Source: Yuukianura sp. NJ FZ-2021 (lineage: Eukaryota). From it: a DNA stretch of 64,000 bases. Shown here in pieces: positions 32,366-58,580 of the stretch. The stretch spans positions 5,208,001 through 5,272,000 of the forward strand of contig CM102289.1 in NCBI GenBank assembly GCA_046563655.1. The letters run 5' to 3'. Below the pieces are notes generated by a model that saw only the letters and a program-made list of their open reading frames with translations, searched no databases and had not been told where the DNA came from. Both the position numbers and the translations under genes were made by a program. Position 1 is the first letter of the stretch, and every line of letters begins with the position of its first letter.

Positions 32366-35300
32366 TTATTTGGAGTTGATGTACTCTCGAATCAAGTAGG
32401 AGATGGAGTAGCTCTCAGAAGTGTTTAAAATGATCTTGACTCCTTTAGCTTCACTGCGCACGATCAGCATCAAGTAGTTGGTCGTTGGGATGTAGTTGAG
32501 AAGATCAGAAAAGTTGTAATTTGCAATTACATTTTTAGTACGTTCCTCCAAAAGAAAAATTCCAGTTTCATCGACAATTAGCCAGAGGTTTCGTGGCCAT
32601 GAAGGTGTGAATGATTGCTTAAAAAGATTAATTAAAATAGAATTATGTTTAATTAATATAAATTATAAATTATTTAATCAATTGAATTATATAGAATTTA
32701 CGTACCACAACTGAAAACAGACTGCCTCTGTAGAGTGGCCATGAAGTGAGTAGGTTGAAGATGCTTTTGTATGAATCTTCTGCTTGACTTCCCACTAGAC
32801 TTTGATGGTAGTATGACACTCGTTCGTAGGAAATGTTCACGGACAAATTGGTTGGAAAATATTTGCTCAAAATACTGCAGTAGTCTGGAAATTCGCCTGG
32901 ATCCATTTGCTCGTAGTTTCCGAGATGAATTTGAGACAACAGAGCAATCAAAATTTCCTTGAAACAAAAATGAAAGAAAAAAAAATTTTAACCTTTTTAG
33001 TTTTGTGCAAATTTTTCTTTGAAAATCGACATACTCCTTCGTTGGTGTTGATTGGATACTTGTTGGTTTTGATATTGAACAGAAGTTGTTGCAGTAGAAG
33101 TTCCTTCTCAATTGGGTTGTTCAAGTTCAAGTGCTTCGTTAGGTACTTTTTGAAAACCAATTTGTATTTTGGCGCCGTTTGGCCATTTCCGCGTGCAGGA
33201 CTTCCAGCACCTTCCCAGCGACTCAAAACGTCGACGATTGTTGTCGCTGGAACCAAATAGCTTTCGCAGTAGCTTCCATTCAAAGTACTCGTTTCATAAA
33301 TTCCATAACCTTTATTAAATCCGGAAAGTTAAAGTTGGGTTCAGTGACCTTTTAAAATTAAAATCAAGTGAGGTCATTTACCTCTGCAGTCCAAACCATT
33401 GAGTCCAACGTAGTTAAAGATGACACCGAGAACGTCTTGGACTGTGTCGTAGTGATTGGCAAGGTCCACCGTGTAGTAGTTGTTGTTCAAAAGATAAATT
33501 TTGACACTAATGGGTTTGAAGTGTATCAAAAAACTGATTTCGGTTGAACTCGGAATGAATTTCCGAACGGCTTTGGTCACCTTGTTGTAACTGTTTGTGT
33601 TTTGAAGCGACTAGACAAGTGAAAATTTATAAAATTTCAAAAATTATTAAAAATGAAATTTTGATTTTTTGTTAAAGTGTTAGTACCTTCATGACAATTT
33701 TGGCATAATCTCCAACCACAGTGACTCCGTCCATCGCAAAATACTTGAGATGCGTTAGAAGGTAGTTCATAATCAGTTTGTTCGTGGGCAACAAGTAGTT
33801 TGCCAGCAAGTTAAGCAATGCCCATGTCCTACGCGTCAGTGCAGAGTTGGGCATCACCGAATTCGTTTGTTTGATCAGTTGAAGGTAAACTTCGTTCAGT
33901 AAGTTGTTGTTGGCCAATCGAATCAAAAATGGTTTCAGAGGTCCATCGCCCTGTGTATAACTGAGGATAAATTTAAACGTTTCCAATGCTGCCGCCTCTT
34001 CTGATTGGTTCAATTTCAAGAGACTGTGAGCAAGAGCCGTTTTGGAGTACGTGAAGTAAGCAGAGAACTGTTTCCGGTTCTTTGATTTGAGTGTGTTGGT
34101 TCCCTTGTCGAAATTTAAGTAGTTGTTGGCTATGAGCAAGTTTCGAGCGTCGACGAGATTGCGCAGAAGCTTTGATCTGTGTCCATTGGTGATGAGGGGG
34201 TGACTAAATTTGGCTTCGGTTCGCTTTAGTTTTGGGTAGTAGCTAGTAATTAGTGTAAAAATGTCATCAGTAAATTTAGTTTTGAAAACGAATTTGGTGG
34301 CGGGAAGGTTGATGACGAGAGACTCGTCTTGAATTTGGAGCGTTTGAATTTCTTCATAGGCAATGGAGTTTAGCACCGTCATGTCCTGTTGAATGAGCAG
34401 AAGTTGAGTGGCGTTGATCCCAAGTAGCAAATGTGGATCTGTTCAAACATGGTAATAATTTTTCAAAAATCTTATCATTTTGTGATTCTTTTTAAATATT
34501 TTTTTTACCGTAATCTCTATATCCGTAGTAGCTCAAATTAAATAAAGTTGTTCCATAAAAGTTTAGTTTTCGGACGCAGTTCAAGTACCGAAGTTGGAGC
34601 GAGAATTTATTTTCGTTCAGTTGGGACACTTGATAGTGCGAATCTTCAAGCAGTGGTGTCTATGTAAAAAAAAATTTTTTTTTAAATTAAATTTTCAAAA
34701 TTTGAATTGAAAATAATTACCCATTGTTCCGTAGATTTGAGTTTGAGGAGACGTGGTGGCAGCGTGTCTTCCATTCTGAACTCTTCGTCTGGTTTGTAGT
34801 TTCCGAGTAGAACTTGGAGCTGGATTCCAGCGAGTGCCACGCCCACTTTCTCAGAAACTGTGTACTTGTCCAATCGGATGACTTCGTGGATACACTGGAG
34901 ATAGTTGAGGTTGATCTCGAGCGGATGCGTAGGAGAGGGGAGAATTGCTTTGAACAGACGCTTCTTCAATACCAACTTTTTACGGGGATTCAGAAGCAAC
35001 AGATTGGGTGGGGTCGTTTGCGATGTAATTTCATTCGATCTAGAAGAAAGTAGAATCGAAACTTTCAAAATCTGAATTTCAAAAAAGTGTTTCAGTTTTG
35101 GTTAACTGACCTCTCCCAGCTAGCAATGAGGTCATAGACATGATCGTATTTCTGAAGGTAGTACATCTCCGTAAGCTCTGAATTTGATTCGTAGATTCCC
35201 CACGTCCCGTCGTTGATAAACTCAGTTTTGAGTAGTAGCGACAATTTGCCTAACAAGCTTCCATACGTATCTGCTGGGTGGATGTTGAGTAGCAAGTAGC

Positions 35301-38300
35301 TGTTGTTTAGCAAGTACAGTTTGATGTGATGGATCAATTGTTGCTGGTTGTGTTGAAAGTAGTACTAGAAAAATTAACGGTTCATTTTTTTCCTACAAAA
35401 TCTAAAAAATTTTGACAAAAAGTTATTGAAAAAAACTTACATTAACTTCAATTAGCGATGGAACAACTTTTCGGTTTCCCCAAATATCAACTGTTGACTT
35501 GAGAAGCGCTGCAATTTGGTTGTGGATTCTGGAGTCTCCAGTGCTTGTTCCCACTTTATTCAAAAAGTGTCCCAGGTACTGAAAAAGCAAAAATTAGACA
35601 AATTTGTAAAATTTTTAAAGAACAACTAATCGAAAGACAAACTTTTTTAAACGCATAGCATGTACATTACCTTTTTCAATTCACTGCTACACTGGAAAAT
35701 TCTCATCACAAATTGAAGGAGGCCAAGTAGCTTGAGCGTTGCGTTTACGTTTGGATTCCCATTGAGTTGGCGCAAAATTTGAATATAAATTTCATCTCTT
35801 AGTTCCTCATGTTCAAGTCCATGTGTTACGAGTGTACGTACAAAGTGCGTGTTTCCAGATCTTGTTGAAGTCAAATATTTTTGTAACTCCTAAACAAAAT
35901 TAATAAAATTTTAGACTAAAAAAGAGCATTTCAAAATTTTAGTACTAACTTTCCAAATGTTGAGAGCCAGTTGAATGTTATCTGGGTCGTAGAGGTAGAT
36001 GTGCGAATTGCTAATTGTGTTACATTTTGAGTATTTGAGCATATCCGATTTCGGTATAAGTTTTGGCTTTTTCTTAAGCGTGTCCATTAAGTTAGATTCA
36101 TAAATGTCATTGAAGTAGTCGTTTGCATAATTAATCAGATCATAGCTGAGTGGTTGTTGCCGTGACGGACTGGACGAGTCGTCAGAGTCAATTTCAATGT
36201 CACCGGGGTTCGAATCCTGGTGATGGTTTCGACCGTTTGTCATTTTCAAACATGGCGGCTGAACCGGTTGCTCCACAAGTACTGTTTCCGGTGGAGGGAG
36301 ATCGGGAACTTTCGGCGGTTCTTCCGGAAGATGTTTAACGATTCCATTTGCAAGTCGAACTGATTCATAAATCGGTTCGTCCGGATTTGAGCCCGATTTG
36401 GTAAGGGGTGGATTTTTGCATGTCGGGGGTGGAGGGGGTGGATAGAAAGTGGGAGGCGGAGGGGGTGGAAGCGTGGGTTCCGGCAGAGTCGGCGGATGTT
36501 TTGGAATAATCTTGCCAGTAATTGCGTGACCCCGGGCAACCTGCTGCTCTGGCAGTACTTCTGGGGGTGGAAGGGGTTCGGATACTTCTGACCCCTCAGA
36601 AGGTGCTGTTGACTGAATTGGAGATTGGATTGTGTTGATGGAGTTCTGTGATCGATCAAAGTCAGAGATGAGACTGTCATTTTCATTGACGCTTGCACTT
36701 TCATCATCATCTTCTTCGTTCATGTCATAGTCATCATCGGTCAGACTAGTAAATGATGAGTTGATTGACGCAGACGTTTTGACAACTTCTTGACGCTTGC
36801 TTATGTCCGGGGATCCCTCTTCGTTGAGTAACAAATCCAGGAGTTCATCAACACTGTTGTAATTGGATCCACTTGTAGAAGAATTTCTGCGTTCTTCCTC
36901 TCTATCACGTAATTCCTTTTCAATTCGTTTCATTTCCTTCATGGATTTAACTACTTCCCGCCCAAACTTTCCACGTAAATGGGATTGAATTATGAGCGCC
37001 GACTTTTTGAGTTTGAGAAAATGAAGCCGCTGTTTGAGACTTCTGTAGTAGCGTTGAATTCTAATGGCAGCTGTAATTTTAACTCGAAATTGGTTTTTGA
37101 CAATATAGGAGCGCCATCTAGCTTGAATTTTAATTGCGGCTTGAAGTAGGAGCCAATTTCTTGCTGACTCCAGTCGCGTATGAAGATCGTTTCGTAAAAA
37201 TATTCTGGATGTTCCTAACTGGAAGTCTTCGGGTCTCGAAAACTTTTGACTTCCTTCACTTACTTTGGCAATAATTGTACTGCAAGGTCAAAAAAAAAGT
37301 TTCAGTATTCAGTGTTGTTTTTTGTTTTTGAAAATTTGAAAATTTTTTAGGAAAAAACATTTTGACTTACTCAATACTAGTGACATTTCCTTTTGATTTG
37401 ACTAGAATTTTGTACTTGTTTGTGAATTCTGAAAATCCATAATTGACTGGATACCCCATTTGCTTGATTTTTACTAAATCTACGATTCCAAGGTAGTTCA
37501 GTTGCTCCAAAATGTAATTCGCGTCGTAGTTGTTTGGCGTTTTGGTGAAGTTTGGTTTTAGACATCGGATGTACCTAAAATTTAGAAAAAATTGGAATTC
37601 CAAATTTTTGATCTTCGACATTTTTTGTGGAAATTGATTGATCGAATTTTACCATGGTTCAGATGATTGGAGTACACTCATGAGACTGCTCAGTTCTTGT
37701 CTGAAGTCTTCGATAAGCGTTGACTTGTATTTGAGTGTGGCCGTTGTAACTTTATCGTTACAACTGATGATGCATTTGATCATGTCATTATCAAGTAAGT
37801 AATTGTGGAAACCATCTTGCACCAAATGGCGGTTTTTGTTAACGAAGCCATCAACTGTGTATGTTACGGCTCCTGCGTAATGAACTACGTTAAACTGTTC
37901 TTTCCAAAAACGACGATCATTTGGAAGATTAAAGGAAGCGTGATTTGAGTGTTCCGTAGTTAAATTTTGTAAAAATGAACCATCGGATCCCTGTTTTTAG
38001 AAAATTTAAGAATTAAAACCCAGAATTTTTGAAATTAGAAAGCTACAAAACTCACTTTTGGTAAATGGCATTGCTCGCTGAGTAATTTGAGTAAACTGCG
38101 TGGCGTCCTTTCCAGAAATTCCAGACAAGTTGAATTGTCTACAAAGGAAATGTAGCTGAAATCCAATCCTTCACTTTGGTACTGCAAAAAAATGAAATTC
38201 AAGAGTTTAAAAATTAAAAAAATCGTCCCAAAAGGAAACAGATGCTGCATGTCAAAAATTCTTGAATTCACTTTACCATTTCCTGCTCCATTCTAAAAAT

Positions 38301-40377
38301 GTATTCATTAAAGTATCCTTGCAGTTTTTCATTGCTGTAGTTGATACAAAGTTGCTCAAAAGAATTTTTTGTAAAGTTTTCAAATCCGAAAATGTCCAAA
38401 AGTCCCACAAAAGTTGAGACTCCTTGGATATCTCTGTTGATTCGACTGTTGATGAAGTAGACCAAGTAGTTGAATATCTTCATGTACAAGTACTGACTCA
38501 TTGAGTGTCGGTTGTCTGATGCTTCCATTGGTCGAAATGGAATGTCAGTCACAATTCCACGAATTGTAATTTGGCGCTGAAGAAGTAGCGACTGCAGTGT
38601 ACTCGGGGAAAGTTGCAGCAATTTTCCAATGGTGTTTAAAATTTCAAGTGACTCAGGAGTCAGTCGACTGATCTCCACATCTTCATCGTTTGGCTAAAAA
38701 ATAAGTTTAGCAAAAATGTTTAAAATTGGAAAGATTCGTTTTTGAAATGAACTTTACCATGAATTCCAAATTTCCAAACCAGAGAATGACTGCGAGGAGA
38801 CTGAAAATGGTGTTGATCGAGTCTGGACTGAATTCGAGGACGTTGAGAGACACAAGTAGATGGTTCCAGTTTGTGTGATCAGTTGCATGTGTGGTTCCTG
38901 GAGCTCCTGGAACGAATTGGTTACAGTACTTATACTGGATGGGCTGAAGACCGTACTTTTCTAAACTCGCGCCACTGCTCAACAGTTGGTAGAAAATGTG
39001 GTAGTTTCGTTCGTGTTGGGATTGACCCACGATTCGACTTTTTTCCAACAAGTAGTTAGTGACAACGGCTCCAGTAATTGCGTTGTGTGAAAAGTAAATT
39101 TGAAGGAATTTTCCAAATCGACTTGAATTGTTATTGCGGACAGTCGTAGCATTTCCTGAAATTGTTAGTGTTTTTAGATTTTGAAATTGAAATTTTGTAA
39201 ATAAAGTTGGGTGTGTTTTACCGAAGGCTTCTAGAATGACATTTCCCTCCAGAATTTGTTCTTGAAGCCAGTAGTTTTCATTGGAACTGATTTCGCAGAG
39301 ATACTGAAGAACAAATTTGCTGGTTTCCGTTTTACCAGAACCACTTTCTCCACTGATCAGAATTGACTGTGGAACGGACTCTTCAAAACGATTCGTAAGT
39401 TGTTCATAACATTTTTGAGTTATGGAAAAAATGTGTGGTAAATGATGTGATTTTGACACAATGGGTTGCATTCTCGACGACTCCTTCGCTGGTGTATACT
39501 GATGAATGTAGTCCTTTTCCAAATTTCAAAAAATATCTAATTTTACAATTATTCTTTCCAGAACTTGATTTTTTTTTTCAAAAAAATATATTCTTACGAA
39601 TCCATAAATATCCAATTCCTTGTATGGATTAATAGCCAACAGAATATTGTCAATGTAAGTCTATAAGAATTCCACGCATTATTTCAATTTTCCTAGTAAA
39701 TTTCAAAATGTTAACTTTTTTTTTTGGTAATGGATTTTTACATAAATTGTGTCCTGGTTGTATCTACTCCAGAGATTCTTGTTAATAATTTCAATGTTGA
39801 TGTTGGATATTTTCGTCATATCTGAGACATTCATTTCCATTTCTAGAATAAGAAAAAAAGTTGGAAATTTTGAAAAATGAAAAAATCGTTTCATTCCATT
39901 AACTTTTCTTCCGGGTTTCTCATAATCTATTTCCTACTTCTACGTACTACTTCTCATCTCCTATTGATTATTTTTAGAAGTCAAGAACGGATGGAGGGGG
40001 TAATTCTGTTGCAAGTCATTACGCACTGGAGAACAAAAAATCACCCCTATATCCTATCTACACAAAAAATGTAAAAATGTTCTTCACCCTTTCACATTTG
40101 CTCTACACTCCAAACCACTCTCAAAATCTAATTTAAAATTCATTTACAAAATTTCTTGGAACAAATTTTTATTTAATAAAAATTCAGAAGCTATCCTACC
40201 CTTAGATGCTGACATTTTTCAGAAAATGTTGCAAAACTTTGTATTAAATATTTTAAAATTTAAATTTAAAAACTTTTTGTTGAAAGAGTAAAGTTCCGAG
40301 AAAATTTCAATGAATGTTAAATTGCAAAGCTTACCATTTTCTTGTACTTGCCCGTTGACTTTTTCCTGTTGGCCCAT
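32366..40377 (-). CDS. Unconventional MyTH4-FERM myosin (motor, 3 IQ, Pro-rich linker, MyTH4-FERM-MyTH4-FERM), most consistent with class XXII
   Basis: About 19 exons. P-loop GESGSGKT, switch I NNNSSRFGK, switch II DIFGFE, YIRCLKPN. IQ motifs IQARWRS, IQRYYRS, IQSHLRG (~36960-37140). MyTH4 cores ELRDEIYIQILRQ and LLNEVYLQLIKQT, each followed by a FERM-like region. No SH3 or PH domain recognised. Candidate first exon 40377-40335 (MGQQEKVNGQVQEN) splices in phase to 39842. Stop at 32368-32366. Confidence 0.92.
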
Positions 40378-43180: not shown

Positions 43181-44522
43181 ATGGGTTGCAGTGTGTCTGA
43201 CGCCTCTTTGCTAAAAATTGCTGCATATTTTGGAGCTTTTGTAGGCCTTTTCCCAGTTTTTGACATTAAGAAGTCAATTTACGAACTAAGTTGGAAAAGT
43301 TTGAATGGATTTTGCACAATTTTTGTACTTAGCTTTGCCATTTGCTCTTTACCACTCGTAGTCCCATTTGACATTGCCACCATCAACACAGCAGTTGATA
43401 TTGTCCATTTCATTTCCGAACTAAATTTAAAACTTGCTCATGTAATGTTTTGGACTCATTTGGCGTACATAAGCAGCACATACTTTGCATACATGTACTT
43501 TTTGCCAAGTATTATCCAATTATTTAGTAGAATCGACACATACATTAAAAGCAGCAAACTTCGGTGCAATTTTACAGCAAAAGGACTCGTTACCGCAATT
43601 TCTCCTGTTTTGCTTGTTGTTGGAAGTCTTATAATGGAGTCAGTTTATGCACTTCTACGGATCGTAGGTTTTGAGCTAAATTTTCCAAACTTTGAAATTT
43701 ATGGATTGAACATTCCGTTCAAAATTTTGAACACCATAGTTGCAGTTTTTATGCTTTTAGTCGTATGTCCAAGTATTGTTGTCATTGTTTTCATTTCTTT
43801 CATAACGGTAATATTAGAGCAACGGCTGACTAAAATTCAAGAGTTGTTGAACGTGGAACATCGAGTGACTGAAATTTGCGGAATTTTGAAAGGCGGAATT
43901 TGGCATAAAAAGGTTGTCACACGGGGTTTCAACTTTGCTGCAGCCGAAATAATCGAACTGCATGAAATTTTTGAAAAATTTGCAAATGGAACTCAAGTAT
44001 TTTTTGTAATTGAGCTTTGCTTCACGTCCTTTGCGCTAACCTTGACTACTTTTCATGTGTGTACTACAATGAATATTATTTTGTATGTGTCGCCTATTCT
44101 GCTTTTGATAAACGTTACCATCATAGGTGCAATAATTTTAAAACTAGTGTGGCTCACTAACTGTGGAGAACGACTTGCGTCAAAGGTAACGTTTAACTAA
44201 CAAAAGTTCGTTTTGACATTTTTGATTTTTTGTTTTTTATGGTTTTAGAGGAATTTACTTTTCAAGAGTGCTTCCTTGATACCGCCAATAACGGTATCTG
44301 ATCAAGAAAGTTTGGCGTACCTAAAACAGTTGACAGCGGTTGCAAAATTTGAACTAACTGGATTTGGCTATTTCAAAATTAATCGAACACTGCTGACGTC
44401 GGTAAGCAAAATCAAAACAAAGCCAAAACAAAAACAAATCACTCGCATTAGTTTTCTTTTGTTAGATTTTGAGTGCTGTTGTTACTTACAACGTAGTGCT
44501 GGTGCAATTTCAAGGTTCGTAG
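43181..44522 (+). CDS. Gustatory receptor (7TM chemoreceptor) family protein
   Basis: Exons 43181-44185, 44249-44401, 44466-44522. Multiple hydrophobic helices. C-terminal LTGFGYFKINRTLLTS|ILSAVVTYNVVLVQF matches the GR TYhhhhhQF signature, with typical phase-0 C-terminal introns. TATAAAA at 43080. Confidence 0.92.
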
Positions 44523-45606
44523 GAGTTGTAGTGCGATAACTGCACAAGCATAACGCAAGTCACAAGTAGTCGTGTATGAATGTCGAAGCAACCAATGGTC
44601 AATCTGTACAATTTTTAACCTAAGGAAATGTTGTAGTATCTCCGAATTATCTGAATAGTTGTACCGTAATACATGTATAGGATTACCGTATTACATGTAC
44701 TTTCCCGTTTTCTGAATTTCAAATGTCGTGACTCAGCAGTACGCATTTTGCACCTGAATTAAGTATCCGTGCACTAATTAATCATAAATTAAAACGACAA
44801 CACTTGAAAGTTGATGTTGCCTAACTCTGAAATAACATGAAATGGCAGGTCAGACAGACAGACAAACAACGTCGACACATCAAGTGGTTTTGGATGCTTA
44901 ATAATACTCTAAATGTTACAATTTCGAATTCACTAAAGAAAAATTTTGACAAGGTAATTTCCAAAGTGCTCTATGCACTGTATAGCAAACAAGTAGCCGG
45001 CAAACATTAAACGTGCATCTAAACATTCGAATTTTGGCAAAAGGTTTGAAAAAATGTAGAAGTTTTAGTTTACAAAAGAATATGAAGACCAAGCTAAAAT
45101 ATTGGTAAACAAAAGTTAGATAAAAAGGGAATGACAAAAGGAAAATTATTTATTTTTCATCACGCAAAATTGCAAATGGAGAATTATTTATTTTTCATTA
45201 TGCAAAATTACTTAATTTTTTTTCCAACTTAGAGTTTGAAGTCTTTAGTGCCTGCAACCGTATCTGGTCAGACGTTCCGCTGTTCTTGGTCATGGTCAAG
45301 CAATTGTGCAAATGAAAAAAATTCTTTGAGTGCTGAAATTGTAATTACTAAAATGGAAAATTTGTTGACGATGTGAAAGTGGCATGAATAATTTAGCGCC
45401 ATAAAACGAATTCCCTCTTTTTCAATTTTGCCAAATACCCGTAATCTTCTCACAAATTCTAATATTTTCAGAGAGTTTTCTTAACGAAAAGCGAAACCTT
45501 TTTTTGTTAAGCGAAATTTTTAACTTTTTCAACAAAATTCACGCTACACAATTAGCACACCAAATTCTTTTGATTGCAATTTTATTTTATACCTGTTGTT
45601 TAGAAA

Positions 45607-47010
45607 ATGGTCAACTCTGAAGTTTCAGTTTCCGAAATCTCTCTCATTCGCGCCTTGGCTCGATTCGGTTATTTTACGGGGATATTCCCAATATCGAATT
45701 TGCACGGTTCAAAATTTCACTTCCGCTGGAAAAGTCCGTCTGGAATTTGCACAATTTTCTGTTTTCTCTTTAACACAATTTTAGTCCCATTTATGTTTAT
45801 TTTTATTGAATTGCTAAACAAAACAATGGTTGATGAAAAATCATTTGCGAAGATATACAACATGTTTTACATCAAAGTCGCACAGCTATTTCTCTATCTT
45901 AGTTTTAGTTGTAGCATATTGGCATACTACGCGTACTTTTACAATCTCCCGCGAATTTTGAAACTATTCCAAACAATAGCATATCACGTCCAGAACAGTA
46001 AATTTCGATGTGGTTACACATGGAAACAAACTCTACACCTCGTTCTTCCTGTTTTGCTGTTTCTTATTCATAATGTAATTTTTATGTTACACTGCGCGTT
46101 TTGTACAAATCAGCACCCTTCAAACTTCCTCTTCAAAACTCCAAAAATTTTCTTTCCAAATTTTTGCATGCATACACTTACTCAGTTTGATTTTGATTGA
46201 ATTTACGGAGCTTTTCCTTGTTGCTCTTGTGACGTTGGTATCGTCAATAGTTGAGCGACGCCTACGAAACGTTGAGCAATTTTTATTTCCAGAAGAAACG
46301 GCCAGTAAAATTTCAAAAACTTTAGAAGACCGGACGTGGTGCACAAGAAATTTTTTGTCAAATTTTGGTTTTGATGCGGCTGCAGCTGAAATAATTCGGC
46401 TGGGGGATATTTTCGAACAATTCGTTGACGCCGTTCAAATATTTCTTAGTATCCACCTAGGCTTTACCACGTTCACTTTTCTCATTTGTTCTTTCCATCT
46501 CGTGACTACATTGACAAAAGCATGGCATCTTTTCCCTGTCTTGTATTTCATGGATATGTTGAATTTTGTATTGCTGTTTATCAAAATCAGTTGGATTGCT
46601 AACTCCGGAGAACGCATCTCTACAAGGGTAAAAGGACTCAATTGGATTTCATTTTTTTTGAGTTCTTACAAAGTAAGTCATGATTTATTTCAATTGACGT
46701 TATTTAATTTGTTTTGAATTATTTTCTAGAAAAATGCACTTGTGCAGAGAATTGCAACACTCCCAACGACGTTGGTGTTAGATGCTGAGGGACTATACTA
46801 TCTGAACAACCTGGTAGCAAATGTGTCATTTCAATTGACAGCACTTGGATTTTTCAAAATTCGGAGATCATTAATAACATCTGTAAGCTACGTTTAGACA
46901 ACTTAGCACAAACTGCTTTGAAATGCCTAAACTGTTGGTGTGACATTTCCTCCCAGATTTTGAGTGCTGTGGTGACCTACAACGTCGTCCTGTATCAATT
47001 TAACAATTGA
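45607..47010 (+). pseudogene. Second gustatory receptor paralog with one frameshift (pseudogene or sequencing indel)
   Basis: Exons 45607-46627, 46730-46882, 46957-47010 (ILSAVVTYNVVLYQFNN*). Exon 1 changes frame between ~46079 and ~46140. The downstream frame SFQIFACIHLLSLILIEF...VERRL aligns without gaps to PFKILNTIV...LEQRL of the first GR. Confidence 0.85.
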
Positions 47011-47546: not shown

Positions 47547-48728
47547 GGGTTTATGCCATTCCGTCAAAAACAAGACATAAGCAGAAAACACATAGGCACC
47601 AAAGACATAAGCAAGAACGACTGAAGCAACACAAGCACATGATCACCTCAAACACATCAGCAGACAGGACATAAGCAGGCGCTTTTGGATGTTGAAGCGT
47701 TTTGGGTTGAGGCGATTTTTCGAAAGAGGCATATTTTTTTGGCACATATTGAACAGGCGCTTTTTGGTTACCGTAAATGCTCTAATATAAGCGCGCCGCT
47801 TATAAGAATTTTCGACCTTTCCGACGCGCCTCTATTAGAACACTATTTATTACCGGAATAATTAATAAGTTTTAAGTGAGGCAAAATTCAATTAATAGTG
47901 ATCCCATTCGTCGTTGGTTTCACTTGCTTTCTTCAAAGCCTCCTCCAGCTGTGCCCACTGTAGTAATACTTGGCATGTCAAAAAATATTCCAGTCATGGC
48001 AATAATATTTGGGTTTGAAATTTTAGTCGTAACAGCGAGGTTGGAAGTGTACATGACGAACTCAACAAGCTTCTCAAATAACGAATTTGGATCTTTTTGA
48101 GCCAACGACGTTTTCTTTCTCAAACTGAGGTCATGGCGCTTCATAAATTTTTGTAGCCAACCACTGCTGGCCTGAAATTCGTTTGTTTGAAGCACTGCAT
48201 AGTAGACTTCCCTAGCTTTCACACGAATAGATTTGAAAGAGACACTTTGCTGGTTGGTGCGCTGATTTAAAATCCAATCGTAAACCATTTTGTCTGCTTC
48301 TTTAGAAAGTTGTTTTCTCGAGTCGAAAGCTAAAATTAGTTAAATTTTTACCGATTTTATCCTTTTGCTTCAGCCAACTGAAGACTTGTTTTCGGTGTAT
48401 TCCGAAGTGAGCTGCGGTACCACCCGTGCTATTAGTAGAAGCGTACTGAACCACTTTTAACTTAAAACTGAGATCAAACAATCGTCTTTTAGTTAACACC
48501 ATTTTTAAAACTTGTATTTAAGTGCTACATTTTGATTTGAGTCAAATTAGCAACATAGAAAACAGATGATGTCACTTTGCTCTAGGCTCTGCTTTAAACT
48601 CAAGTTAGCTACCGCGCTTATATCGCAATTTGCCCCCGCTGAAACCGCGCTTGCATTAGAGTATGCGCTTATATTAGAATACGCGCTTGCATTAGAGCAT
48701 TTACGGTAGGCGCATATGACCTGGAACC
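47547..48728. mobile_element. Foldback/MULE-like MITE remnant that hosts the pogo insertion
   Basis: Termini GGGTTTATGCCATT (47547) and ...ATGACCTGGAACC (48728) resemble those of 9513-9760. Internal ACATAAGC and GGCGC motif arrays. The GGCGC array is split by the pogo element. No matching TSD. Confidence 0.5.
47771..48706 (-). mobile_element. pogo/Tigger-type DNA transposon, internally deleted
   Basis: TA on both sides. 25-bp TIR CCGTAAATGCTCTAATATAAGCGCG with 2 mismatches in the right copy. Subterminal CGCTT(G/A)(C/T)ATTAGA repeats. Minus-strand transposase: Brinker-type HTH (FKLKVVQYA...AAHFGIHRKQVFSW), CENP-B/Tc5 HTH (FQASSGWLQKFMKRHDLSLRKKT), and the start of a DDE_1 domain lacking the first Asp (IIAM-TGIFFDMP), then truncated. 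Confidence 0.92.
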
Positions 48729-50529: not shown

Positions 50530-51380
50530 AAGGTCAAACTAAAAAAATACCCTGTCAAATAGACCTCTGTCCTGTCCGAACAGAATCTGTGGGAACTTCA
50601 AGATAAGTCGAAATCATGCAGTAATGTGCTAAATACGATGCCTCCTCCACTATTTAATTATTACCAAATGTGTCTGCCATGTGAATCGCTGATGCGACGA
50701 ATTGCTGAGAAACATGTTGGTTTTGATGATTTTAAATACACCAGTTAATTAATTCTCTTATTTCTACATCCCGAGTTTTTGTTTTGGTAGAATCTGTATC
50801 GCTACATTGGTGGGCTCCTTGAGCGCGATTTTCCTGATACTACAGTATCCTTACTGTCTCCAGATGAGACTAATGATACTGGTAAATTTTTGAGGAAACT
50901 CTCTAGCCTCATTGGAGAGAGACTTCTGGATCCTAGTGCGCTGCCTAATGTAAGTATACCGCTTAACGGGCATAACGTAAACTAAATTACAATTTTTGTT
51001 TCTTTATCCTATTGTTTTTGTATAGTGTACTCAGGATATAATATCATACATTTGTGTCCTATTTATCGACAAAATGAAAACTTGCAAAAGAATTTTGCAT
51101 TCATGTAAGTAAAACTTTTCAATTCAGATTTTTATTCTTATTTTGTCTGATTTGAGTTTAATTTTGCAGGTTTTGGGATGTCACTGCTTCCCAATTTTAA
51201 ATTTCTGACACCCTTAACGAGGTTCAAGAGAACGAGACCAACAACGAATTAGTTTACTATATGTGTGACTTTCTAGCTGGAAGTAACTCCACACCGGAAA
51301 TTTTAGGGGTTCCTAAATTTCTGGATAATGGGCTTCCCGGCTTTCAACGATGTGAAAAAATTCATGTAAAAAAAATTTAA
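50530..51380 (+). pseudogene. Multi-exon gene fragment of unknown identity, weak HECT-like C-terminal motif
   Basis: Clear splice signals around 50791-50949, 51026-51104 and from 51170. The final segment FWDVTASQF*...LVYYMCDFLAGSNSTPEILGVPKFLDNGLPGFQRC resembles the HECT FW...FxTG...P..G...LPxxxC pattern. In-frame stop and phase mismatch present. Confidence 0.3.
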
Positions 51381-51444
51381 CTGTGGAGCCTGTGAGTCAG
51401 AGTTTTATGCACGTAGTGTCCTCAACAAAGATGTTGGGGGTTCT

Positions 51445-52591
51445 GTGACTACGCCATTAGTATTCACTTCAAATAACCTTTCCAGCAGCTTGGAATCGCT
51501 GACCCGAGAAATGAATGAAACCATCACAGAAGAAACCGAAACTGCTAGACATGTGAACGTCTTGTCACGAGAAGTTAACACGTTTCAAAGAGGCTTCATG
51601 CAAACGTATTTCCATCTAAATCCAATCGCGGAAATTATGCAGTTCACGGACCTTCAATCACATTGCCGTAGCCACACAATTCCCTTACTCGCCGTTAATC
51701 CTCAAAGACTCAGCAAAGATTTACGAAGTATCAACCGAAAAATCAGAAGCGATGGTTACACCTTGGCGATTCCAGCAGAAGATGTTTCAAAATACTACAA
51801 ATTGCGAATCGCAGACTGTACCTTCACTCCGGAAGAAAGAGTAATTTTTCGAGTTAAAATTCCAATTCGACAAATTGAAGAAAATTGGAAACTATTTGAA
51901 ATGGTTAACATTCCGTTTGGTTTCAAGGGAAGCATTTGCATGATCCATCATGCACCCATTTACGTCGCCGTTGCAGCCAACAACATCATCACCATCCAAG
52001 GGACTCAGCTACAACAGTGTCAACCACACTCTGGACTCTGCCTCGTTCCCCGAACAAACAGTAATCCAATGGTCGGATTCTTTTGTGTCAAACATCCTGA
52101 AAGGTTCTAGCGTACGAGAGCTGAATGACGTATGTATTTTTGAGTGTGTGTTGGGAAACAACGAATTAACGGTCACTCAATTAAGCTATAACACTTTTAT
52201 CCTAACTGGAAAAGTTGAAGGCACTAAAATTGATTGTGGTGAAACTAAGAGCTTTTCGGGAGGTCCACCGACGGAAGGCGTGGGAAGCTTCCAGGTCAAA
52301 TTAAGCTGTGATTGTTCAGTCAAAATTCCCGGAAGATCGCCAATTCCACCTCCGTATCCTTGCCCAGATGACCTCCTAAACTTTCAAACAGTCCATATCA
52401 TAATCCCTGCCGTTATGTCCAAAATTGATGTCATGCTAAAGGCTAATAATCGGGGTGAACCAGTTACTTATCCCCACCTCCGCGCAGTTTTCAATGAAAC
52501 TTGGGACCTTGGTTCACCCCGCCTAAACTTAACGGAAGTCAGCAGAATCAAACAATTGGTAGTTCCAAATTTAATTAACAATTTAGAGTAG
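51445..52591 (+). pseudogene. Retroelement/viral envelope glycoprotein ectodomain fragment (baculovirus F / errantivirus env-like), frameshifted
   Basis: Intronless. Heptad-like helix, then P.RL..DL..I......LAIP.....YYKL...C.....IFRVKIPI....WKLFEMVNIPF and a Cys-rich region. Frameshift near 52090. Lacks the N-terminal cleavage site/fusion peptide and the TM anchor. Confidence 0.75.
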
Positions 52592-56237: not shown

Positions 56238-58380
56238 TTAAAGTTTTTGTTTCTTTTTAGACCATTTTCGAATAACTTTGACAGTAACACTGTGCCAAGA
56301 ATTTACCAAAACACCCATCATGTTCCAAATCGATTCAATTTCCTTCGGCTGGGAATTGTAGTTGTTGTCAAAAGCTCTACAAGACAGCACCACTTCCGTT
56401 GCATTCTTTTCAACAAAAACTTTCACCTAGAATTTCAAAAGAAAAAATTAGAAAAAAATTTCATAATGTTTTGTGATATATCATGTGACCTATACCTGCC
56501 AAATTACCCAAGCCCATGCCACCCTCTTGTCTTCTTTCTGAACAATTTCTGCCTCCGTCCAACTTAATCCTCCGTTAACCGTGACATCTACTCGTCTAAT
56601 TCCATTTCCACCACCACTGAAAGCATAACCTTTGACCTCAATGGCCCTTTCAAGGTCAAAGGTCACCGTGTCTCCATCAGTCGGCACTAGAATGGCCGAT
56701 TGGACATTAGTGTAGAGGAGACTAGGAGCCGAGGAGTAGTCGATGTTGTTCCAGTTGTACTTGGGATGGTAAAATCTGTACATCCTCTGTTCCCAAACGC
56801 TGTCCACTTCAACTGTACTCAGGCTGATTCGGGTCAAAAATTTGACACTTTTGAATCCCGCCATTCCAGGAACAATCACTCTAACCGGGTAACCATGGTC
56901 AGGAGGCAGGAGGTCACCGTTCATTTCGTACGCTAAGAGCAACTGAGCGGCGGGATTCAGGCCGATCTCTGCTGGCACTGAAGCTCCAAAGCTCATGATT
57001 CCCGCGGGATCTTGGTCAGCGCCTTCGAAATCCAAGAATTTGAATTTTTCCGTGTCTAATTCTATTCCCGCCCTAGCTTGCGTTCCCGCTCCAGCCAAAA
57101 GTCCGAAATAGGCGAGAACGTCAGTGAGAAAAACCCCACCCCAAGTGGCCGTGCTAATTGCCGTGTGCTTGTAAGCTACCCCATGGGTGACTTTTATCTG
57201 AAATGAGAATACAATTTTTTAAACAATTTTATTTTATATGCATTTAATTAAATTGAAAGTCTTATTATTATTATCAATCATCGGTTGACCTTATTCATTT
57301 CTGTACGTCTGTTTCCTGCACACTGGAGCGTTACGTTGACCACGCGCTTTTTAAATTTCGTCTTCAAGTCATCCATAGTCAACACAATTGGCTTGTCGAG
57401 TCCAAATCCATCAATTGTTATTGTATGATCGTCCCAATTGAGTTGAGGTACAACAAGGTGTAACCTTACGAAGTGGTAATCACTACAAAAACATAACATA
57501 ATGTTTTTTGTGTTATATTTTCCTAATTGTATTATTCATATCATTGCTTCTATTCTAATGTATTTCGAGCGTATATAGAAAATTCTGATCGTCAAAATCC
57601 AAAAATTAGTCGTGCCCACGACGCGAGTAAATTTTTCGACCATTTTAAGTGCTTTACTTATCGAAACTATTACAATTAGTGGATGGAAGAAATTAAAAAT
57701 TTAGCTCAAAATTCAAAAAACAAATCAAATTTAAAATTTTCTACAAACTGTTAAGTTATTATATGTAACAGAAATCCCCATCATCCCTAAATCTACACCT
57801 CCGATATTTGGGAATACCTCAATAATCCCCACTACAAAGCTCGAAAAATTTAAATTGTACGAAACAACGGTACTCACACGGGCGTGATGAATGACTTGAC
57901 CAAGTCTTTTGAGTAGGCATTTGCATTGAATGGTTTGAGTGTTATGACATCCATGACCTTTGACCTCTCTGCGCCCTCTACCTGAAACGGGTCAGCGTTG
58001 TGCTTTTCCTCTTCCTTTCTGTCCTCCAGTGCCAGGTTGCCGATTCGGAGCGACTCCAGAACTCTGTAAACTCTGGCGTGTTTGTGCACCGGGAGAGCAT
58101 TCCAGAAGGGTTCAAGGTGTCCACCACCAGCGGCAAATATGTCACGTCCGCCTGGATGCTTGTCCACAAAGTCAGTCAAGTCATAAACTCCTGCTCTGTA
58201 TGATGTCCAGATCCGTTTTGACTTTGTCACGTGACGTTCCACCTCGGAGTTGGTGAAAGTTGGCAAACTGGGCACCTCGAAGTCACAACCACAGGAGGAG
58301 TCATCTTCTGTAAAATTATGACCAAGAGTTTCAAAAATTCCAAATAGGAAAACTAAAATTAGCGATGGAAAAAATTTCAT
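56238..58380 (-). CDS. Sulfite oxidase family molybdo-heme enzyme (cytochrome b5 + Moco + dimerisation domains), divergent
   Basis: Exons 58380-57878, 57482-57290, 57197-56496, 56426-56238, phase-compatible. b5 heme motif FVDKHPGG...FWNALPVH. Mo-ligand LQCAGNRR. LAYEMNGDLLPPDHGYPVRVIVPG, VKGYAFSGGG, and C-terminal SQP...IWNMMGVLVNSWH. Confidence 0.95.
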
Positions 58381-58463: not shown

Positions 58464-58580
58464 GTCAATTTTTATAACTTCCTACATTACAACTAAATTA
58501 ATGCCACTTTAACTTAACTTTAAAATAGTTAAGTTAGTGGCATTAATTTAGTTGTAATGTAGGAAGTTATAAAAATTGAC
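58464..58580. repeat. Long palindrome containing the putative sulfite-oxidase TATA box
   Basis: Perfect 45-bp arms at 58464-58508 and 58536-58580, with further pairing inside. TATAAAAA on the minus strand at 58476-58469 and on the plus strand at 58568-58575. Confidence 0.9.

Follow-up and report, generated by a model that had tools for sequence, protein, structure and literature searches.

The 64,000-nucleotide (64-kb) stretch of DNA analysed here, referred to as the window (positions 5,208,001 to 5,272,000 of contig CM102289.1, GenBank assembly GCA_046563655.1, Yuukianura sp. NJ FZ-2021), carries on its minus strand, at 58380-56238, a gene related to animal sulfite oxidase (SO), which is a real, conserved, and unusual variant of this known enzyme family. 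The gene is complete, its pocket residues are altered in a combination that is rare among homologs and maintained in an ortholog, and it is under purifying selection. From sequence comparison, we consider it somewhat probable that the product belongs to the animal SO family as an intact, fast-evolving protein that selection maintains, with an altered substrate preference and a location outside the mitochondria.

The gene consists of four exons, which together gave 1587 nucleotides (nt) in frame and a protein of 528 amino acids (aa), hereafter the query. All three introns were of the GT-AG type, with phases 2, 0, and 0, and the spliced model coincided exactly with the coordinates (56238..58380) proposed in an initial annotation of this DNA. 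The Pfam domains recognized were Cyt-b5 (exon 1), Oxidored_molyb (exons 2-3), and Mo-co_dimer (exons 3-4), with E-values on exon 3 of 3e-30 for Oxidored_molyb (PF00174) and 1e-18 for Mo-co_dimer (PF03404) and further matches on exons 2 and 4. The latter two domains identified the protein as an SO family member, and the order cytochrome b5 (b5), molybdenum cofactor (Moco) domain, and dimerization domain is that of animal SO. The ESM Atlas gave a match at the family level only. Using tblastn with the spliced protein and four other SOs, no other SO-like exons were found in the 64-kb window.

Alignment of the exon translations with chicken SO (chain 1sox_A) using phmmer was nearly gap-free around each residue discussed here, and the literature numbering of the chicken enzyme is used throughout. 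The molybdenum (Mo)-ligating Cys185 and the contacts R138, H140, H283, R288, and K301, taken as marks of the SO family, were all present (C222 corresponds to C185, R174 to R138, and H176 to H140), as were R190 (R227) and Y322 (Y372). As in animal SOs, the cytochrome b5 domain was N-terminal and contained two histidines, H75 and H99, aligned with chicken H40 and H65, which we take to be the haem ligands. The pocket itself was different. A quantum mechanics/molecular mechanics (QM/MM) study (PMC5856855) describes a hydrogen-bond (H-bond) network around sulfite or sulfate formed by Arg138, Arg190, Trp204, Tyr322, and Arg450, in which the anion is held by 8-10 H-bonds from these residues and one water; it also names His283, Arg288, and Lys301 as the binders of the Moco phosphate, and counts R298 and D321 among the buried charged groups. 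Only three of the five pocket residues were kept in the query, where Met replaced R450 and Tyr replaced W204. Further differences from the chicken enzyme were N320R and K200H, while V452 was kept. The initial annotation had reported R138, R190, and Y322 as kept, W204 and R450 as replaced by Tyr and Met, and the motif GARxVKW as changed to GFKSVKF; every detail was correct, which confirms the observation.

In a full HMMER scan covering 1.84 billion cluster representatives, the closest relative was at 60% identity (P0093), with all other matches at 48% or less. This relative is an exon-sized open reading frame (ORF) on a 5.5-kb metagenome contig (L001), from which, using tblastn and reading of the DNA, we assembled an ortholog of five exons and 520 aa that matched the query at 281 of 498 aligned positions (56% identity). 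It shared the three intron positions and phases of the query and had one extra intron within the b5 domain; in this gene model the extra b5 junction is uncertain, as is the start, which may be either of two in-frame ATGs 14 codons apart. The ortholog carried Phe at both the W204 and the D321 positions, Tyr322, and the motifs GFKSVKF and IWNMMGVLVN, identical to those of the query. Cys185, Arg138, Tyr322, Arg190, and both haem-aligned histidines were kept in both orthologs. A column scan revealed ten columns, each conserved in at least 85% of SOs, that were altered in both proteins: Glu to Asn at query position 154 (q154), W204Y/F, His to Phe at q286, A261G, R298K, W302F, Q318E, K323R, P346N, and R450M. 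The ortholog was read at q154, q178, and q241 from its pairwise alignment with the query; q178 was dropped as a shared change because the ortholog has the canonical Pro there. Three of the ten changes correspond to the nitrate reductase consensus, namely K323R (Arg in 38 of 40 nitrate reductases), P346N (Asn in 33 of 39), and R450M (Met in 23 of 37). The scan used 142 SO-type sequences that had been picked by W204 and R450, and the rarity of changes in those two columns was instead counted from the larger set described below.

For these counts the spliced protein was aligned using MAFFT with 241 homologs collected by a word-indexed search and the full HMMER scan. They included 194 sequences of the Tyr322 type and 40 of the Asn322 type, the latter being nitrate reductases with Asn by definition of the set. 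Among the 194, the R450 column contained Arg in 155, a gap in 22, and other residues in 17; Met was found in none of the 172 that have a residue there. The W204 column contained Trp in 171, Tyr in three, and Phe in two; the R298 column Arg in 183 and Lys in five; and the W302 column Trp in 182 and Phe in five. The named insect and barnacle SOs all had W204, R298, and W302, and all had R450 except Callosobruchus, whose row shows Gln in the alignment. The idea that Met and Tyr might be common at these positions in ordinary arthropod SOs, which would have undermined the initial annotation, is not borne out by the column counts. Among the 40 Asn322-type sequences, Met was present in 23 of 37 residues at the R450 column and in 33 of 35 at the V452 column. 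Judged by this alignment, the pocket combination is far beyond chance or ordinary variation. In four of the five Tyr322-type sequences with Lys at the R298 column (P0093, P0119, P0207, and P0212; not P0145), Lys accompanied loss of D321, which suggests that the two changes are coupled.

The N-terminus of the query was compared with those of 12 SOs and SO-like proteins, and the leader was judged by manual criteria. Position 37 of the query aligned with residue 2 of 1sox_A, and what lies ahead of it is a 20-residue leader and then a short acidic linker that contains a CxC motif. The 15-residue Kyte-Doolittle maximum was 2.15 at residue 3 of the query and 2.07 in the ortholog, compared to at most 1.42 in the 12 comparison SOs. 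The first 30 residues of the query contained one Arg or Lys and four Asp or Glu; each ortholog had one basic residue in this segment, compared to 3-8 in the comparison sequences. Of the 12 comparison SOs, 11 have the HPGG motif, which lies at residues 92-149; in the two orthologs it was at residues 75 and 76. By this manual assessment, the basic presequence that directs animal SO to the mitochondrial intermembrane space was missing. If the upstream ATG of the ortholog (1635-1679 of contig L001) were used, a basic K-K-R-K would be added ahead of the hydrophobic core, and the leader would still be signal-peptide-like. The query has three N-x-S/T sequons (N22, N217, and N474), all of them conserved in position in the ortholog, and at the same columns sequons were found in 2 of 59, 2 of 224, and 0 of 99 homologs. 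The leader and the conserved sequons point to the secretory pathway as the probable compartment. The loss of the mitochondrial presequence weakens the case for a housekeeping role, an argument that the initial annotation did not make.

Trees were calculated using FastTree (152 rows) and IQ-TREE (44 rows). Both recovered the two orthologs as a pair with full support and a long stem branch (0.74-0.76), and both placed this pair among the SOs and not with the nitrate reductases. The free IQ-TREE tree put the pair outside all other eukaryotic SOs. This placement was rejected as a conclusion, since the tree constrained to join the pair with arthropod SOs had a log-likelihood 10.5 higher than the free tree and was not rejected, with a p-value of 0.67 in the approximately unbiased test (p-AU). 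The trees are compatible with the clade having originated as a fast-evolving arthropod duplicate.

Polymorphism was assessed on contigs of four DNA runs from two samples and two studies, all of which covered the gene. Of the 40 listed single-base differences, 21 were located in exons, 14 being synonymous and seven non-synonymous, which gave a pN/pS of 0.14; the five listed insertions or deletions (indels) were all intronic. The gene is under purifying selection. None of the non-synonymous differences affected a pocket or cofactor residue, and four of the seven were located in a lineage-specific loop. This loop, at residues 262-281 (residues 264-281 correspond to window positions 57053-57103), has some 12-13 residues more than chicken SO and the ortholog.

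What follows is a proposed mechanism, in which the cellular location, the altered substrate, and the direction of catalysis are inferred. The protein keeps all that is needed for haem and Moco binding and for oxygen-atom transfer at Mo. Of the five side chains around the doubly charged sulfite or sulfate, two are gone, Arg450 having become Met and the indole NH of Trp204 having given way to Tyr or Phe; the near-invariant Arg298, Trp302, and Asp321 behind the pocket are likewise altered, and the presequence for the mitochondrial intermembrane space seems to have been replaced by a hydrophobic leader of the endoplasmic reticulum type. With Met in place of one of the three arginines and no conserved indole NH, the pocket is one positive charge poorer and more hydrophobic, and a preference for a less charged substrate is the most economical reading of this. 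The enzyme would be an oxotransferase of the Mo(VI)/Mo(IV) kind, coupled to the b5 haem of the same protein. Its substrate would carry less negative charge than sulfite and could be a mono-anion such as nitrate, nitrite, bisulfite, or an organic sulfinate, or else a neutral N- or S-oxide. The enzyme would work outside the mitochondria, and probably either within the secretory pathway or extracellularly. Nitrate and nitrite are appealing candidates because Met450 variants of chicken SO have been crystallized (PDB 3R18 and 3R19) and because PMC6783311 describes animal SOs gaining nitrate-reducing activity upon replacement of two residues; organic sulfinates would be another chemically sensible class. 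The suggestion of the initial annotation that the gene encodes a neofunctionalised paralog acting on another substrate, and not the housekeeping SO, is supported in part, by the rare pocket, by the 56%-identical ortholog that keeps it, by purifying selection, and by the three of ten changes that follow the nitrate reductase consensus.

Several points weigh against an altered enzyme outside the mitochondria. Because Arg138, Arg190, and Tyr322 remain in place, the protein could still bind and oxidize sulfite. The clade is known from two members only. The polymorphism counts come from assembled contigs, which drop rare variants, and cover the differences listed, with one further difference outside the list; three of the four runs represent one sample, which is possibly the source of the window itself. 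We also know of no route by which Moco is delivered into the secretory pathway, which counts against an active luminal or secreted enzyme.

A serious rival, which we consider possible although rather unlikely, is that the protein is still an SO, acting on sulfite or bisulfite with altered affinity and merely moved, for example to the gut lumen, the haemolymph, or secretory vesicles. The retained Arg138, Arg190, Tyr322, Mo-ligating Cys, and b5 domain, the animal SO domain order, and the position of the clade among SOs in both trees would all fit such an enzyme. In addition, several distant homologs, presumably bacterial, have no aligned residue at the R450 column, and Arg450 is therefore not universal in the family. 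However, Met at this column occurs in none of the Tyr322-type homologs that have a residue there; in the QM/MM model of PMC5856855, loss of Arg450 removes H-bonds to two sulfite oxygens; the Trp204 NH is conserved in neither ortholog; and ten conserved columns underwent a joint change that has since been held constant in both orthologs, which looks like a shift in function and not like drift.

A bolder version of the altered-enzyme proposal, which we regard as unlikely, would make the protein a glycosylated, secreted or luminal haem-Mo enzyme of a poorly sampled invertebrate lineage and a sixth, SO-derived type of eukaryotic Mo enzyme, serving as an extracellular nitrate or nitrite reductase (for example, one that makes nitric oxide) or as a sulfinate oxidase, with a pocket either convergent on nitrate reductase or adapted to mono-anionic sulfinates. 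A little less likely still is a dedicated nitrate or nitrite reductase of animals, whose pocket would have come to resemble that of the plant and fungal enzymes by convergence and whose b5 haem would be reduced by an external donor. R450M, K323R, and P346N agree with the nitrate reductase consensus, and the crystallized Met450 variants and the two-residue replacement described in PMC6783311 would lend it chemical plausibility. Against it, Tyr322, Val452, and Phe297 are not those of nitrate reductases (Asn in 40 of 40 by definition of the set, Met in 33 of 35, and Gly in 38 of 40, respectively), so that of the four diagnostic residues Asn322, Met450, Met452, and Gly297 the query, with Tyr, Met, Val, and Phe, has a sole match at the R450 column. 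A search of the query gene for the Pfam domains FAD_binding_6 and NAD_binding_1 gave no match, and the protein ends 25 residues past the pocket Met; it has no flavin adenine dinucleotide (FAD)/NADH domain. No electron donor is evident, and the trees did not group the protein with nitrate reductases. The resemblance to nitrate reductase is only partial.

That the protein might be a non-catalyst, an SO-derived carrier or storage protein for Moco or haem, seems improbable. A secretion-type leader is hard to square with known Moco insertion, and Caenorhabditis elegans is reported to take up dietary Moco (PMC9793310), which makes extracellular Moco-handling proteins conceivable; a mere carrier, however, would need none of the catalytic Cys185, Arg138, Tyr322, and Arg190 or the haem-aligned histidines that both orthologs conserve. 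Least credible is that the locus is a pseudogene in decay, or that the gene arose as an artefact of assembly or annotation, given a 528-codon frame open through four exons with canonical splice sites, the same stretch in contigs of four runs from two studies, indels confined to introns and a low pN/pS, and an intact ortholog with common intron positions; the polymorphism pattern and the ortholog rule out a pseudogene for practical purposes.

The preferred reading, an SO-family enzyme with altered substrate preference outside the mitochondria, bears on the known inventory of Mo enzymes. Animal SO is regarded as one enzyme with a housekeeping role in the mitochondria. A derivative of animal SO that is conserved and carries a natural R450M would be a natural counterpart of the variants engineered from SO toward nitrate reductase; the two-residue conversion of animal SO to nitrate-reducing activity reportedly goes back to Qiu et al. 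2012. The non-mitochondrial leader would raise the question of how Moco is delivered to the enzyme, and a secreted or luminal haem-Mo enzyme, if real, would imply an unknown Moco route into the secretory pathway. For new Mo-dependent chemistry in invertebrates, the gene also offers a tangible candidate that can be expressed. According to PMC10637980, only five eukaryotic Mo enzymes are usually counted: SO, nitrate reductase, xanthine oxidoreductase, aldehyde oxidase, and mARC. No paper describing such an SO paralog was found in the literature searched, in which most subscription journals were not covered.

Coordinates of the exons, introns, and residues of the SO-like gene are listed in the table, by position in the window.

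Table. Features of the SO-like gene; chicken SO residues are given for comparison.
Feature	Position	Strand	Remarks
Exon 1	57878..58380	-	aa 1-167 + 2 nt; leader, CxC linker, cytochrome b5 domain, tether; Pfam Cyt-b5 E 6e-13
Signal-peptide-like leader, residues 1-20	58321..58380	-	MK, then a 14-15-residue hydrophobic core, then T-L-G
CxC motif C30, C32	58285..58293	-	between leader and b5; conserved in ortholog (C31, C33)
H75 (HPGG)	58156..58158	-	aligned with chicken H40
H99	58084..58086	-	aligned with chicken H65
Intron 1 (phase 2)	57483..57877	-	high-copy short repeat inside at ~57672-57738
Exon 2	57290..57482	-	start of Moco domain; R174 (=R138), H176 (=H140), C222 (=C185), R227 (=R190), sequon N217
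Intron 2 (phase 0)	57198..57289	-	
Exon 3	56496..57197	-	remainder of Moco domain and first part of dimerization domain; E 1.9e-49 to 1sox_A
Y241	57171..57173	-	at W204 position (HGVAY vs KGLPW); Phe in ortholog
F347-K348-S-V-K351-F352	56838..56855	-	GFKSVKF vs GARSVKW: A297F, R298K, K301 kept, W302F; motif identical in ortholog
M371-Y372-R373	56775..56783	-	D321M (Phe in ortholog), Y322 kept, K323R
Intron 3 (phase 0)	56427..56495	-	
Exon 4	56238..56426	-	end of dimerization domain, sequon N474; stop codon 56238-56240
M502-M503	56316..56321	-	L449M, R450M (IWNMMGV vs IWNLRGV); IWNMMGVLVN identical in ortholog

Two repeats were associated with the gene. At the repeat in intron 1 (57672-57738), the depth in run X1 was 12797, compared to 231 in neighboring bins, and many contigs ended at both edges. 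A perfect 45-nt inverted repeat, with arms at 58464-58508 and 58536-58580 that are 27 nt apart, was located ~85 bp upstream of the start codon; the contig depth rose there, one contig ended at 58464, and the element looks like an insertion of the miniature inverted-repeat transposable element type in the promoter region.

Around the SO-like gene, the window contained intron-containing animal genes and mobile elements. An unconventional myosin gene at 33672-39525 on the minus strand encoded a myosin head, an IQ motif, a proline-rich insert, and MyTH4, with weak, sub-threshold FERM-type matches. The best database identity of its myosin-head exon was at most 44%; the top score belonged to an ostracod myosin (40% identity), and a mite myosin-XV was among the named matches. 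The low identity suggests a poorly sampled lineage, and the matches fit an invertebrate animal, probably an arthropod. Two groups of ORFs on the plus strand, 43181-44200 and 45604-46717, encoded proteins that resembled each other, were hydrophobic, and appeared to span the membrane several times. None matched a Pfam domain at E <=0.01, and the two groups may represent a tandem pair of divergent chemoreceptor-type genes. An ORF at 47920-48339 on the minus strand contained a Tc5-type transposase DNA-binding domain (E 1e-14), and ORFs at 51370-52591 on the plus strand gave a weak match to Baculo_F (E 1e-5), typical of retroelement env genes.

The query was compared with four known systems. With animal mitochondrial SO (chicken SO, PDB 1SOX; human SUOX), it shares the order of b5, Moco, and dimerization domains, an E-value of 1.9e-49 for exon 3 against 1sox_A, the Mo-ligating Cys, Arg138, His140, Arg190, Tyr322, His283, Arg288, and Lys301, and both haem-aligned histidines. 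It differs from the chicken enzyme by R450M, W204Y, A297F, R298K, W302F, D321M, and K323R, and from animal SOs by a 20-residue hydrophobic leader, just 35 residues ahead of b5, in place of a basic presequence; its clade stands apart from other SOs by the three clade-specific conserved sequons and the long stem branch. The Mo domain of eukaryotic nitrate reductase (Pichia nitrate reductase, PDB 2BIH and 2BII) has the same Moco fold (E 1e-18), and the query resembles it at three columns, R450 (Met), K323 (Arg), and P346 (Asn). The resemblance does not extend to Tyr322 (Asn in nitrate reductase), Val452 (Met), or Phe at 297 (Gly), nor to the architecture, since the b5 domain is N-terminal in the query, whereas nitrate reductase has C-terminal b5 and FAD/NAD(P)H reductase domains.

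The engineered chicken SO variants 3R18 and 3R19 have Met at 450, in the motifs IWNLMGV and IWNLMGM, compared to IWNMMGV in the query. Both are laboratory mutants of the mitochondrial enzyme and reportedly also carry Y322N, whereas the query, a natural protein, retains Tyr322 and is altered at many other sites. The beetle 'sulfite oxidase-like' paralogs P0035, P0167, and P0207, which comprise those of Coccinella septempunctata and Diabrotica spp. together with P0207, are likewise extra arthropod SO copies with an altered second shell, having D321L in all three and W204M, A297N, and R298K in P0207. Unlike the query, they keep Arg450 and long basic N-termini. They form a clade of their own inside the arthropod SOs (support 99, marked with an asterisk), in which the query clade was not nested in the free tree, and on this sequence evidence they are a separate, younger lineage. 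Because the beetle paralogs form their own clade, duplication of arthropod SO with remodelling of the second shell would have happened more than once.

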